From Escherichia coli O127:H6 str. E2348/69 (lineage in GTDB: Bacteria; Pseudomonadota; Gammaproteobacteria; Enterobacterales; Enterobacteriaceae): DNA of 64,000 bases. The stretch lies in the NCBI RefSeq assembly GCF_000026545.1, contig NC_011601.1; one strand, written 5' to 3'. The notes beneath the pieces were generated by a model. That model worked only from the letters and a program-made list of their open reading frames with translations, ran no database searches and was not told the origin of the DNA. Of this stretch, positions 4,017 through 62,088 are shown one piece after another (the first letter of the stretch is position 1; each line of letters starts with the position of its first letter). The translations under genes and the position numbers were made by a program.

Positions 4017-4727
4017 TTAATAATAATCGATCGTATTTTTGATGGTGTAAACCCGTTCGACGGCGGGTTTTACTCCTTCATCAACAATGATTAGCTGACA
4101 GTCCACCGGATTGGCGTGATTGTCATACTCACAGCTCTGTTTTACATTACCAACCCGTTGATTATTCAGTAAAGTAACCGCTGTGTAATCTAATTTTTTG
4201 ATCGGGTCCGTTGATGGCGTGGCGCTGACAGATAATGTTTTATCGTTACTTGTTGTGGTTTTACCCAGCGGATACCCCTGATCATCATAGCGATATTCCA
4301 TCTGCATCTGTTTGCTGCTGGCTTTAATCACGAAACCATTATCATCGGTTTCCCAACTCACCCCGGCAGAAGGTAATTCTGCTAGCTGGCATTTTCCCTG
4401 CAAACGAACTCTTTTCTCCAGCGTCTCGGCATCACGGTAATAATTGGCGTCCAGTACCAGGGCAACCAAGGTATTATTTTCCAGATCCAGTAATTCGAGA
4501 GAATCAAAACAGCCTTCTTCCGACAAAGTCCCCGAAACACGTTTCGTCACTTCACCTTGCTCATCCATTAATGTCTGAGTGAAATCTTTTACGGGACCAC
4601 GCAGCGGATCAAAATCGAATTCATTAGAGAAACTGGCCATCTCCGGGGTAAATGAAAGTGTTACCTCTGTGCGGTCACATCCTGTGAGTAATATCGCGAG
4701 TAAGCATGGCAGTAATTTGTATTTCAC
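4017..4727 (-). CDS. ynfC: UPF0257 family lipoprotein
   Basis: ORF 4017..4763; start placed at in-frame GTG 4725-4727 giving MKYKLLPCLLAILLTGC lipoprotein signal with lipobox, AGGTG RBS 6 nt upstream. Confidence 0.8.
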   Translation of the reverse strand: MKYKLLPCLLAILLTGCDRTEVTLSFTPEMASFSNEFDFDPLRGPVKDFTQTLMDEQGEVTKRVSGTLSEEGCFDSLELLDLENNTLVALVLDANYYRDAETLEKRVRLQGKCQLAELPSAGVSWETDDNGFVIKASSKQMQMEYRYDDQGYPLGKTTTSNDKTLSVSATPSTDPIKKLDYTAVTLLNNQRVGNVKQSCEYDNHANPVDCQLIIVDEGVKPAVERVYTIKNTIDYY

Positions 4728-34004: not shown

Positions 34005-35651
34005 TTATTTCACACAGCGGGTGCATTGTGTGAGTTGTATCTGCTGGAAGAAGTCATTTCCTTTATCATCCACAAGGATAAACGCCGGGAAATCTTCCAC
34101 TTCAATTTTCCAGATGGCTTCCATTCCCAGTTCCGGATATTCAACACATTCCAGGCTCTTAATACTTCCCTGCGCCAATACAGCTGCCGGACCACCGATA
34201 CTGCCGAGGTAGAAGCCGCCGTGTTTTTTACAAGCATCCGTCACCTGCTGGCTGCGATTACCTTTCGCCAGCATGATCATACTTCCGCCCTGCGCTTGCA
34301 ATTGATCGACATAAGAATCCATCCGGCCAGCGGTCGTTGGGCCAAGAGAACCGGAGGCATAACCTTCCGGCGTTTTGGCCGGACCCGCGTAGTAAATCGG
34401 ATGATCTTTAATGTACTGCGGCAGCCCTTCACCGTTATCCATCCGCTCTTTCAGTTTGGCGTGAGCAATATCACGACCGACGATAATCGTGCCGTTAAGC
34501 GATAAGCGTGTAGAAACGGGATACTGCGACAACTGTGCGAGGATCTCTTTCATCGGACGGTTAAGGTCAACGCGCACCGCTTCGCCTTCTCCTGCTTTGC
34601 GCAGCTCTTCCGGGATATATTTGCCTGGATTATGTTCCAGTTTTTCGATCCAGATCCCCTGACGGTTGATCTTCGCTTTGATATTACGGTCAGCAGAGCA
34701 GGAGACGCCCATACCGACCGGGCAGGATGCGCCGTGACGTGGCAGGCGAATCACGCGGATGTCGTGAGCGAAGTATTTACCACCAAACTGCGCACCCAGA
34801 CCAAGATTTTGCGCTTCGATCAGCAATTCTTTTTCAAGTTCCACATCGCGGAACGCCTGACCGTGCTCATTCCCTTCCGTTGGCAGTTCATCATAGTATT
34901 TAGCGGAAGCCAGTTTCACCGTTTTAAGATTCGTTTCTGCAGAAGTTCCACCAATAACGAACGCAATATGATACGGAGGACAGGCCGCCGTACCCAGCGT
35001 GCGCATCTTCTCAACCAGGTAATTTTTCAGTTTTCCCGGCGTCAGTAACGCTTTGGTTTCCTGATAGAGATACGTCTTGTTTGCCGAACCGCCACCTTTG
35101 GCGATACAGAGGAATTTGTACTCGTCGCCATCAACGGCATAAAGATCGATCTGCGCTGGCAAGTTGGTGCCGGTATTCACCTCTTTATACATATCCAGCG
35201 GCGCGTTTTGCGAGTAGCGCAGATTATCCTCGATATAAGTGTTATAAACACCGCGCGCCAGCGCTGCTTCATCACCGCCACCGGTCCATACACGCTGCCC
35301 TTTTTTACCAACAATAATCGCGGTGCCGGTATCCTGACAGGTTGGCAGAACGCCTTTTGCGGCGATGTCGGAGTTACGCAGGAATTGCAGCGCCACATAT
35401 TTATCATTTTCGCTGGCTTCCGGGTCACGCAGAATGTCGGCCACCTGTTGTTGGTGAGCCGGACGCAGCATAAATGACGCATCATGAAACGCCTGACGCG
35501 CCAACAGAGTTAACGCTTCGGGTGCGACTTTCAAAATCTCCTGCCCTTCAAATTCAGATACGCTAACGTGTTCGCTGGTTAGCAGGTAATACTCAGTATC
35601 ATCTTTTTTGAGTGGAAAAGGAGCCTGATAATGAAAGGGTTTGTTTGACAT
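34005..35651 (-). CDS. fumA: fumarate hydratase class I, aerobic
   Basis: ORF 34005..35651 (548 aa); recognised as FumA. Confidence 0.95.
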
Positions 35652-58644: not shown

Positions 58645-59340
58645 GTGAGCGAAATTAAAGACGTTATTGTTCAGGGGTTGTGGAAAAACAACTCTGCGCT
58701 GGTCCAGCTGCTCGGCCTTTGTCCTCTGTTGGCGGTCACGTCCACTGCCACTAACGCTCTGGGTTTAGGACTTGCGACTACGCTGGTACTGACGCTAACC
58801 AACCTGACCATTTCGACGCTGCGTCACTGGACACCCGCCGAGATCCGCATTCCCATTTACGTGATGATCATCGCCTCGGTGGTCAGCGCTGTACAGATGC
58901 TGATCAACGCCTACGCCTTTGGCCTGTATCAATCATTAGGGATTTTTATTCCGCTGATTGTCACTAACTGTATCGTTGTGGGCCGCGCTGAAGCCTTCGC
59001 CGCCAAAAAAGGTCCGGCGCTTTCGGCACTGGACGGCTTTTCAATTGGTATGGGCGCAACCTGCGCCATGTTCGTGCTGGGTTCACTACGCGAAATTATC
59101 GGCAATGGCACGTTGTTTGACGGTGCAGATGCGCTGTTAGGTAGCTGGGCAAAAGTATTACGCGTGGAGATTTTCCACACCGACTCCCCTTTCCTGCTGG
59201 CGATGCTGCCACCAGGTGCATTTATTGGCCTGGGACTGATGCTGGCAGGAAAATACCTGATTGATGAAAAAATGAAAAAGCGCCGTACTGAAGCAGCTGC
59301 CGAACGTGCATTGCCAAACGGTGAAACAGGGAATGTCTGA
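58645..59340 (+). CDS. rsxE: Rsx/Rnf electron transport complex subunit E
   Basis: ORF 58645..59340 (231 aa). Confidence 0.95.
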
Positions 59341-59975
59341 TGAACAAAGCAAAACGCCTGGAGATCCTCACTCGCCTGCGTGAGAACAATCCTCATCCCA
59401 CCACCGAGCTTAATTTCAGTTCGCCTTTTGAATTGCTGATTGCCGTACTGCTTTCCGCTCAGGCGACCGATGTCAGTGTTAATAAGGCGACGGCGAAACT
59501 CTACCCGGTGGCTAATACGCCTGCAGCGATGCTTGAACTGGGCGTTGAAGGGGTGAAAACCTATATCAAAACGATTGGCCTTTATAACAGCAAAGCAGAA
59601 AATATCATCAAAACCTGCCGTATCTTACTGGAACAACATAATGGCGAGGTTCCGGAAGATCGTGCTGCGCTTGAAGCCCTGCCTGGTGTAGGTCGTAAAA
59701 CAGCCAACGTCGTATTAAACACTGCATTCGGCTGGCCGACTATTGCTGTCGACACGCACATTTTCCGCGTTTGCAATCGTACTCAATTTGCGCCGGGGAA
59801 AAACGTCGAACAGGTAGAAGAAAAGCTACTGAAAGTGGTTCCGGCAGAGTTTAAAGTCGACTGCCACCATTGGTTGATCCTGCACGGGCGTTATACCTGC
59901 ATTGCCCGCAAGCCTCGCTGTGGCTCTTGTATTATTGAAGATCTTTGTGAATACAAAGAGAAAGTTGACATCTAA
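59340..59975 (+). CDS. nth: endonuclease III (DNA glycosylase/AP lyase)
   Basis: ORF 59340..59975 (211 aa); start overlaps rsxE stop (TGATG); HhH motif and C-terminal 4Fe-4S Cys cluster. Confidence 0.95.
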   Translation: MNKAKRLEILTRLRENNPHPTTELNFSSPFELLIAVLLSAQATDVSVNKATAKLYPVANTPAAMLELGVEGVKTYIKTIGLYNSKAENIIKTCRILLEQHNGEVPEDRAALEALPGVGRKTANVVLNTAFGWPTIAVDTHIFRVCNRTQFAPGKNVEQVEEKLLKVVPAEFKVDCHHWLILHGRYTCIARKPRCGSCIIEDLCEYKEKVDI

Positions 59976-59981
59976 AGATCA

Positions 59982-60015
59982 GGGGTAACACCGATTACCC
60001 CATTCATAACCTTTC
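59982..60015 (+). terminator. terminator-like hairpin after nth (stem GGGGTAA/TTACCCC)
   Basis: 7-bp stem, 6-nt loop, followed by moderately U-rich tract; 7 nt after nth stop. Confidence 0.45.
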
Positions 60016-60585
60016 TTTATCCTCTTTTAAAACATCTTTTTAACGTCAATGATGCCATTGCTTAGCGTTATCATCAGGTAATCCGTTTGCAGATAACCAA
60101 AAATGCAGGTTAATTGTTTTTTTAATAGCGAAATTTTCTATTCATTCGTGATCAAGATCACGATGCTGTGGCAATGTAAAAACATTGCAAGAATCAGGTT
60201 AAAATCATTTAAATTTACACACGCAACAAATATTGACCTACAAAACATTACACTGGCTATTTTTCAGAAACTGGACTATCTCACTAGGAAAAACGCCAAA
60301 TAGTAGAACATATCGCCATTGAGCCATCATCACCCTCTCAGGGTAGTGAAAAAATCTGCCGTTACGTTTTTTGAAAAATTTAACGCTGGATAACATTTCC
60401 CGGAATGGTTGAATTCCCCGCCTCAGTTATATGTAACAGATTATTACAAAGGACTTGTCTGAAAGTGCAAGATAGTGAACATTACCTGCCGTTTCCCCTC
60501 CCACTATAACAATTGCGCGTATGTTTTTTAGGCATAACGCGAGAAAGCACCCCCGTTAATATGGGATGTAAAAAAAGAGGTAAAA

Positions 60586-62088
60586 GTGTCCACTGCAAAC
60601 CAAAAACCAACTGAAAGCGTCAGTTTGAACGCTTTCAAACAACCGAAGGCGTTCTATCTCATCTTCTCGATTGAGTTATGGGAACGTTTTGGTTATTACG
60701 GCCTACAAGGAATTATGGCTGTTTACCTGGTTAAACAACTGGGTATGTCTGAAGCGGATTCAATCACCCTTTTCTCTTCCTTTAGTGCCCTGGTTTATGG
60801 TCTGGTCGCTATCGGCGGCTGGTTAGGTGACAAGGTACTGGGTACTAAACGCGTAATTATGCTTGGCGCTATTGTGCTGGCGATTGGTTATGCTCTGGTT
60901 GCCTGGTCTGGTCACGACGCCGGTATCGTTTATATGGGTATGGCGGCTATTGCGGTCGGTAACGGCCTGTTTAAAGCTAACCCGTCTTCTCTGCTTTCTA
61001 CATGCTATGAGAAAAACGACCCGCGTCTGGACGGTGCATTCACCATGTACTACATGTCCGTCAACATCGGCTCTTTCTTCTCTATGATCGCCACCCCGTG
61101 GCTGGCCGCGAAATACGGCTGGAGTGTTGCGTTTGCGTTGAGCGTTGTAGGCCTGCTGATCACTATCGTTAACTTCGCCTTCTGCCAACGCTGGGTTAAA
61201 CAGTACGGTTCAAAACCAGACTTCGAGCCTATCAACTACCGTAACCTGCTGCTGACCATTATTGGTGTTGTGGCACTGATCGCTATCGCCACCTGGCTGC
61301 TGCACAATCAGGAAGTTGCGCGTATGGCGCTGGGCGTTGTTGCATTCGGTATTGTGGTTATCTTCGGTAAAGAAGCTTTCGCGATGAAAGGTGCTGCGCG
61401 TCGTAAAATGATCGTTGCCTTCATCCTGATGCTCGAAGCCATTATCTTCTTCGTGCTTTATAGCCAGATGCCAACGTCACTGAACTTCTTTGCGATTCGT
61501 AACGTTGAACACACCATTCTGGGCCTGGCCGTAGAACCTGAGCAGTATCAGGCACTGAACCCGTTCTGGATCATCATTGGTAGCCCGATTCTGGCCGCTA
61601 TCTATAACAAGATGGGCGATACCCTGCCAATGCCAACCAAGTTTGCTATCGGCATGGTGATGTGTTCTGGTGCGTTCCTGATTCTGCCGCTGGGTGCGAA
61701 ATTCGCGTCTGACGCTGGTATCGTGTCTGTAAGCTGGCTGGTCGCGAGCTATGGCCTGCAGAGTATCGGGGAACTGATGATCTCTGGCCTGGGTCTGGCA
61801 ATGGTTGCACAACTCGTTCCGCAGCGTCTGATGGGCTTCATTATGGGTAGCTGGTTCCTGACCACTGCCGGTGCAAACCTGATTGGTGGTTATGTTGCAG
61901 GTATGATGGCTGTGCCGGATAACGTTACCGATCCGCTGATGTCACTGGAAGTCTATGGTCGCGTATTCTTGCAGATTGGTGTCGCTACTGCCGTTATTGC
62001 AGTACTGATGCTGTTTACCGCGCCGAAACTGCACCGCATGACGCAGGATGACGCTGCAGACAAAGCGGCGAAAGCAGCCGTAGCGTAA
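60586..62088 (+). CDS. dtpA: proton-dependent di/tripeptide permease (POT family)
   Basis: ORF 60586..62088 (500 aa), GTG start with AGAGG RBS; recognised as DtpA (TppB/YdgR). Confidence 0.95.

Follow-up and report, generated by a model that had tools for sequence, protein, structure and literature searches.

A strong CRP-type palindrome, CGTGATCAAGATCACG, lies in the long intergenic region between nth and dtpA of Escherichia coli O127:H6 str. E2348/69, and cAMP-CRP almost certainly binds it. This CRP site is already known, being present in three genome-scale studies. The one new point of the present analysis is its geometry: in aligned orthologous regions, the spacing from the CRP site to a series of conserved blocks, down to the -10 region of the dtpA promoter, is fixed to ±1 bp across genera. 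We consider dtpA the probable target of the site. A very tight, conserved and position-locked CRP site is found far upstream of a promoter shared by OmpR, GadX and YdcI. Throughout, the window is the whole 64,000-nucleotide stretch of DNA that was analysed, and positions are counted from its first letter.

The nth-dtpA intergenic region

The genes at this locus are arranged as rsxD-rsxG-rsxE-nth, followed by the spacer and dtpA-gstA, with pdxY and tyrS on the opposite strand. The spacer had been described from the sequence as a long, AT-rich region of 610 bp; it extends from 59976 to 60585 (610 bp), with a GC content of 37.0% against 50.1% for the whole window. This spacer is found in 5423 of 5426 complete E. 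coli genomes and carries no annotated feature. That of K-12 has the same length, differs at a handful of positions and contains the identical palindrome.

We rejected a 66-codon open reading frame at 60103-60303, which runs across the CRP site, as a gene because its ATG is present in Escherichia only and other genera have stop codons in it. This frame is probably ETEC_1668A of the original annotation of ETEC H10407. The 'TSS' at 1710182 given for rsxABCDGE-nth by Latif 2018 was likewise set aside: it is the end of the transcription unit, as is 5020 in the thrLABC entry. A hairpin at 59982-60001 lies directly past the nth stop codon and is flagged by the terminator scan on the minus strand only; in K-12, its minus-strand tail is TTTTCTTCA and its plus-strand tail is not T-rich. 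Transcripts coming out of the spacer may be terminated by it, at least as efficiently as those of nth.

The palindrome is an outstanding match to the CRP matrix

The sequence-only reading had reported an inverted repeat with 7-bp arms at 60146-60161, which is one base off: CGTGATCAAGATCACG occupies 60147-60162. The rest of its description was accurate. The arms are CGTGATC and GATCACG around an AA spacer, and 8 of the 10 positions of TGTGA-N6-TCACA are matched: GTGA and TCAC are intact, and the two mismatches are the outermost bases, C for T and G for A. The distance to the dtpA GTG codon (60586), given as about 430 bp, is 431.5 bp from the palindrome centre at 60154.5. The full 22-bp CRP site covers 60144-60165, with its half-sites at 60148-60151 (GTGA) and 60158-60161 (TCAC). 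Of the three GATC (Dam) sites of the spacer, two fall inside the palindrome, with their starts at 60150 and 60156.

As a bare palindrome, CGTGATCAAGATCACG is not beyond chance. Perfect inverted repeats with 7-bp arms and spacers of 0-10 bp occur 97 times in the window, compared with about 41 times in shuffled sequence, and seven of the 97 have a 2-bp spacer. The match to CRP, by comparison, is well beyond chance; GTGA-N6-TCAC occurs only three times in the window. We scored it with a symmetrised position weight matrix (PWM) built from 149 CRP boxes (Shimada 2011, PMC3105977, Table S3), from which the dtpA-upstream site had been left out. It reached 16.15 of a possible 19.73 bits, which ranks it 11th of 150 when placed among the training boxes and first among all 16-mers of the 64-kb window. 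None of 472,116 background positions, taken from the coding flanks of 80 related loci, equalled this score, and shuffled sequence did so at 2 of 3.2 million positions, or about three per 4.6-Mb genome.

The same scan returned two known CRP sites at ranks 2 and 3 of the window, namely TGTGATTAACAGCACA (15927-15942, between ynfL and mlc) and CGTGATATTGATCGCA (43327-43342, between uidR and uidA). Ranks 4 and 5 fall at 34460, within a class I fumarase gene (annotated fumB), and at 4683, within ynfC.

CRP binding at the site in published data

Binding of CRP to this sequence is recorded by three methods. In the genomic SELEX of Shimada 2011 (PMC3105977), Table S3 assigns the box CGTGATCAAGATCACG to a peak located between the two genes ('nth> >tppB'), and Table 2 includes tppB, together with dppA, among the newly identified CRP targets. 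For ETEC H10407 cultured in M9-fructose, Table 1 of Haycocks 2015 (PMC4287617) places CGTGATCAAGATCACG beneath a CRP ChIP-seq peak of high confidence. The peak was assigned to a small strain-specific ORF, since the start of dtpA is more than 300 bp away (PMC4287617). In the H10407 sequence NC_017633.1 we located the 16-mer at 1811609-1811624, between nth and dtpA. The published peak coordinate is about 190 bp lower than this RefSeq position; because the mlc site is shifted in the same way, by about 215 bp, we take the offset to be systematic and not the sign of a different peak (two sites checked). Finally, Footprint-seq by Wang, Stringer and Wade 2026 (PMC12871828, Table 1) gives a K-12 footprint at NC_000913.3 1712342 with the sequence 'ttCGTGAtcaagaTCACGatg'. 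Its estimated Kd for CRP is 2.1 nM, a value that ranks with the 77 tightest of 1,217 regions, and it is one of 37 tight sites more than 500 bp from any earlier curated site, with dtpA as the associated gene (PMC12871828).

The sequence-only reading had proposed a site for CRP or another dimeric regulator here, serving dtpA or an unpredicted transcript, and pointed to a matrix scan and to published CRP and OmpR data. Its CRP proposal is borne out: the scan puts the palindrome at the top of the window, and the same sequence is bound in SELEX, in ChIP-seq and in the K-12 footprint. The occupancy on record in vivo is from ETEC H10407 only, and the K-12 evidence is in vitro.

The half-sites are conserved across genera

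We next consider 80 DtpA-encoding loci of the Enterobacteriaceae, which with K-12 make a set of 81. In all 80 loci, nth is upstream of dtpA, and the spacer is usually 580-630 bp long. In 57 of the 81, the highest PWM score anywhere in the spacer is 12 bits or more and belongs to a match 427-432 bp away from the dtpA start. Among these 57 sites, GTGA is present in every one and TCAC in 53-57; 42 begin with T and 15 with C, and the central positions 7-9 are nearly free (0.2-0.6 bits). Half-sites that are kept around a drifting 6-bp centre form, on this alignment, the pattern expected of a protein that reads two half-sites, and the site is old, with half-sites under selection across at least 15 genera. 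Within E. coli, a 101-bp stretch centred on the site occurs in 5423 of 5426 complete genomes, in all of them at 95% identity or more.

The site is not universal. It has decayed in Kluyvera, Pseudocitrobacter, Superficieibacter, Intestinirhabdus and Phytobacter, and the flanking blocks are still present in Kluyvera, Pseudocitrobacter, Superficieibacter and Phytobacter despite its loss, which suggests that the upstream region works without CRP in some lineages. Several Kosakonia have an nth-dtpA spacer of 1.18 kb with their strongest CRP site at -569, and some of them add a weaker one at -428.

The GATC of the right half (60156-60162 region) is kept in 53 of the 57 loci and, outside Escherichia, is followed by a conserved TGATAAC. 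The G at position 10 carries 1.56 bits of conservation compared with a CRP-matrix weight of 0.31. This excess suggests an additional constraint, such as Dam methylation or an overlapping site, and CRP binding may be sensitive to Dam methylation through the conserved right-half GATC.

The CRP site is in fixed register with conserved blocks

Seven conserved blocks flank the site or lie between it and the dtpA gene, and we measured their offsets from the CRP centre in the 57 loci that carry the site (Table 1). For all blocks but TATTTTTCAGA, the distance to the CRP centre stays within ±1 bp in 53-56 of the 57 loci. When 42 non-redundant sequences were stacked without gaps and anchored on the CRP site, no block slipped out of alignment along the 345 bp covered, even though identity in the intervening segments is only 35-48%. 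All length variation falls outside this unit, in the nth-proximal part, which accounts for a spread of about 50 bp in total spacer length, and in the leader (about 5 bp).

Table 1 Features of the nth-dtpA region. Positions are those of the window; offsets are distances from the CRP centre in the 57 loci with the site.
Feature	Position	Strand	Offset (bp)	Remarks
nth CDS	59340-59975	+		Final gene of the rsx-nth operon
AT-rich blocks CAGGTTAAT-T7 (60106-60124) and ATTTTCTAT (60133-60141)	60106-60141	.	-48.5, -21.5	Conserved
CRP core site CGTGATCAAGATCACG	60147-60162	.		Single occurrence in the window; PWM 16.15 bits
Second palindrome GCAATGTaaaaACATTGC	60171-60188	.		Perfect; Escherichia only; 9 bp past the CRP site
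Variable-sequence, fixed-length segment	60193-60240	.		35% mean ungapped pairwise identity; no net indel
Blocks ACAAAACATTACACTGGCTATTTTTCAG...CTAT.TCACT and AG(T/C)AGAACATATCGCC	60241-60317	.	~+103, ~+147	
Blocks GAAAAATTTAACGCTGGATAACATTT (60373-60398) and TTATATGTAACAGATTATTACAAAGG (60426-60451)	60373-60451	.		Nearly invariant
Core dtpA promoter	60455-60491	+		-35-like TTGTCT 60455-60460; -10 region TGaACATTA 60476-60484
dtpA transcription start	~60490-60491 (U00096.2 1710697)	+		From OmpR peak position
dtpA leader hairpin	60515-60542 (approx.)	+		Compensatory changes; columns 353-382
dtpA (= tppB, ydgR) CDS	60586-62088	+		GTG start
Block CAGGTTAAT			-48.5	
Block AATTTCTAT			-21.5	
Block TATTTTTCAGA			+102.5	Within 1 bp in 40 loci (exception)
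Block AGCAGAACATATCGCC			+146.5	
Block AAATTTAACGCT			+220.5	
Block ATGTAACAGA			+275.5	
Block GATAGTGAACATTAC (-10 block)			+315.5	±1 bp in 56 of 57 loci

The nature of the blocks can be suggested in part. The AT-rich blocks next to the CRP site could represent a UP-like element, bent DNA or the site of another factor, and those in 60241-60317 are probably sites for other factors. The TTATATGTAACAGATTATTACAAAGG block resembles an OmpR site and is covered by the published ChIP-exo peak for OmpR. A comparison by eye of the flanking blocks with the Lrp, IHF, Fis, ArgR, TyrR and sigma-54 consensus sequences gave no convincing match. Where Escherichia has the second palindrome, other genera have TGATAAC and then direct repeats of the form TGTT-N7-TGTT.

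We also asked for RNA structure in the region by RNAalifold over 34 genera. No covariation was detected upstream of the dtpA transcription start, and we therefore regard the upstream blocks as acting at the level of DNA. The only covarying structure of the spacer is the hairpin in the dtpA leader of about 95 nt, in which both sides of one pair have changed in up to 18 of the 34 sequences. As covariation is restricted to this hairpin, a long structured leader starting near the CRP site is not supported. The hairpin may contribute to leader stability, or be an element of sRNA or translation control. The alignments are most simply read as the mark of an assembly on the DNA whose bound proteins must keep their places relative to one another, and of which the CRP site would be a part. 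The spacing constraint could also belong to the other blocks rather than to CRP.

Position of the site relative to the dtpA promoter

Two independent published observations place the dtpA promoter. An A-to-T change 108 bp before the GTG codon (+503/-108; window 60478), described as adjacent to the -10 region, increased the amount of dtpA mRNA some 23-fold and was carried by repeated sweeps in long-term stationary phase (PMC7858067); the dtpA promoter is thus a recurrent target of selection during starvation. An OmpR ChIP-exo peak at U00096.2 1710621-1710680, with its centre scored at -46.5 (PMC5438342), maps to about 60415-60474 of the window. This centre implies a transcription start at 60490-60491, which in turn places the CRP centre near -336. 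Relative to this start, the only one documented for dtpA, the site is neither class I nor class II (-41.5, -61.5, -71.5, -82.5, -92.5). A published dtpA promoter fusion that extends from -201 to +15 does not contain the CRP site and is still regulated by OmpR. Binding upstream of dtpA has also been reported for GadX and YdcI.

Proposed action of CRP on dtpA

dtpA is the only gene downstream of the site and its promoter is phase-locked with it, which leads us to infer that the site serves dtpA. Each CRP subunit reads one GTGA/TCAC half-site across the 6-bp centre and bends the DNA. The site would be the distal element of an upstream dtpA control region of about 365 bp with fixed geometry, through which carbon status (high cAMP in the absence of glucose) would be relayed to the weak OmpR-dependent promoter some 336 bp downstream. 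The chances that the high-affinity operator plays this part, passing carbon status to the promoter as a distal element, are in our estimate slightly short of even.

Because -336 is far outside the class I and class II positions, such an effect would have to be architectural. One candidate is bending of the DNA by CRP so that the upstream blocks, or the alpha-CTD of RNA polymerase, come into phase with the promoter complex; another is relief of silencing of the AT-rich spacer. Given the spacing of ±1 bp across genera, we prefer a long-distance, phase-dependent effect on dtpA to a second, local promoter, and this mode of action is put forward tentatively. The most specific version, in which the CRP site is the distal anchor of an enhancer-like region of about 365 bp and a phase-locked bent or looped complex acts on the OmpR-dependent promoter from about -336, is possible and somewhat doubtful. 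The effect would most likely be positive, raising peptide uptake during carbon limitation, a direction that is guessed from physiology.

The physiology fits: peptides are scavenged more when carbon is limiting, the SELEX targets include dppA as well as tppB, and mutations that increase dtpA expression are selected in starvation. Our literature search returned no experiment in which crp, cya or glucose alters dtpA expression. CRP seldom acts from positions beyond -300. Should it do so here, from -336, the dtpA region would join the few known cases in which CRP works over a long range and in dependence on geometry, and a tie between DtpA-mediated peptide uptake and carbon status would be explained.

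Alternative explanations for the site

The main rival is a weak, unannotated second promoter adjoining the site that CRP activates or represses, and we regard it as possible but rather unlikely. Transcription from it could proceed in the direction of dtpA, which would yield a leader of about 380 nt, or in that of nth, which would yield a short antisense or intergenic RNA. Most CRP sites in the ETEC ChIP-seq data are about 40.5 or 92.5 bp upstream of a start (PMC4287617), and the surroundings of the palindrome offer some raw material for such a promoter. Downstream of the site are the -10-like sequences TGcAAGAAT (60186-60194) and TAAAAT (60200-60205), the latter common, as TAAAAT/TAAATT, to Escherichia, Citrobacter and Salmonella; the conserved AT-rich blocks upstream could serve as a UP element; and on the minus strand, the hairpin at 59982-60001 is followed by a T-rich tail. 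Measured from such hexamers, however, CRP would lie at about -46.5 and -57.5 (plus strand) or at about -48.5 or -28.5 (minus strand). None of these is the canonical -41.5 or -61.5, and no -10-like hexamer is kept beyond close relatives. A search for -10 hexamers anchored on the CRP centre in 42 non-redundant orthologues, on both strands, found none at class I or class II distances. In that search, TAAAAT at 60200-60205 put CRP at -57.5 in Escherichia, Citrobacter and Salmonella only, while the extended -10 TGcAAGAAT, picked out by eye, would put it near -46.5. A consensus promoter scan of 59900-60700 returned nothing and also missed the known dtpA promoter. A local promoter would further leave the fixed length of the variable segment at 60193-60240 unexplained. 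A conserved small RNA is unlikely because the sequence between nth and the first AT-rich block (block A) is poorly conserved and variable in length, and a search of the spacer against Rfam at E ≤ 1 found no RNA family, with a single chance match to a snoRNA.

CRP might also be bound here and regulate nothing, with a role in local chromosome shaping or as a reservoir. About one third of the CRP targets in ChIP-seq are intragenic and without an obvious role at a promoter (PMC4287617), the position at -336 is non-canonical, and the literature search returned no expression data that tie CRP to dtpA. Against an idle site stand the selection on the half-sites across at least 15 genera while the centre drifts, a position that is fixed to ±1 bp relative to the promoter, and an affinity (Kd about 2 nM) that belongs with the 77 tightest of 1,217 regions (PMC12871828). 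On balance, this explanation is improbable, and clearly more so than a neighbouring promoter.

It is very unlikely that the site belongs to FNR or to another dimeric regulator, of the CRP/FNR family or otherwise, instead of CRP. GTGAT-N4-ATCAC does fit TTGAT-N4-ATCAA at 8 of 10 positions. Anaerobic induction of Salmonella tppB is described in the older literature, and this induction is reportedly independent of oxrA (fnr). Yet the base that tells the two types of site apart is G in each half, as for CRP, and is so in 57 of 57 orthologues; direct binding by CRP is on record in vitro and in vivo.

Practically no weight can be given to the idea that the palindrome arose by chance, forms an RNA hairpin or terminator, or serves MatP as a matS site: the window is in the terminus region and has 97 such palindromes, tus and one true matS match, but the CRP-specific match goes far beyond chance and the site is conserved. 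Chance is refuted by the background scan, in which no position among 472,116 reaches the score, and by the binding data. As RNA, the hairpin is unremarkable, with a z of -1.47; it lacks a T-run and is not called by the terminator scan. The 13-bp matS motif (GTGAC-RNY-GTCAC) has five bases between GTGA and TCAC where the palindrome has six, and C at position 5 where it has T. The sole true matS match of the window, exact to the consensus, is GTGACAGTGTCAC at 51816-51828, inside ydgJ. A CytR/CRP operator, in which tandem CRP sites about 52 bp apart flank TGCAA repeats, was rejected as well, there being one strong CRP site only; a single TGCAA is present at 60187-60191, in Escherichia only.

Comparison with known systems

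One close system is the OmpR-dependent tppB/dtpA promoter itself (Goh, Siino and Igo 2004; Seo 2017), which concerns the same gene and spacer and whose OmpR-like block and core promoter stand in register with the CRP site. OmpR acts there from -46.5, whereas the CRP site is outside the -201 to +15 fusions used in its study. Since these fusions omit the site, they may miss part of dtpA regulation.

Like the CRP sites of class I and class II promoters, the dtpA-upstream site is 22 bp long and two-fold symmetric, has GTGA-N6-TCAC, is bound with nanomolar affinity and is occupied in vivo. On the PWM it scores higher than the mlc and uidA CRP sites of the same window. The canonical positions are exemplified by lac (-61.5, class I) and galP1 (-41.5, class II). 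The dtpA-upstream site differs from them in lying at about -336, with no canonical -10 at the right distance on either strand.

In physiological terms, dtpA would resemble cstA, another peptide transporter gene, which is activated by CRP. With cstA and other CRP-controlled peptide-uptake genes it would share the logic of scavenging peptides when a preferred carbon source is lacking.

For action at a distance, a parallel is papBA, where CRP acts from -215.5 together with Lrp and in a manner that depends on helical phase. The distance is larger at dtpA, and neither Lrp or partner sites nor a phase-variation machinery have been identified there. Both regions have a single CRP site hundreds of base pairs upstream, a weak activator-dependent promoter, an AT-rich spacer and GATC sites, and the rigid spacing of the dtpA region across genera is what would be expected if helical phase matters there as it does at pap.
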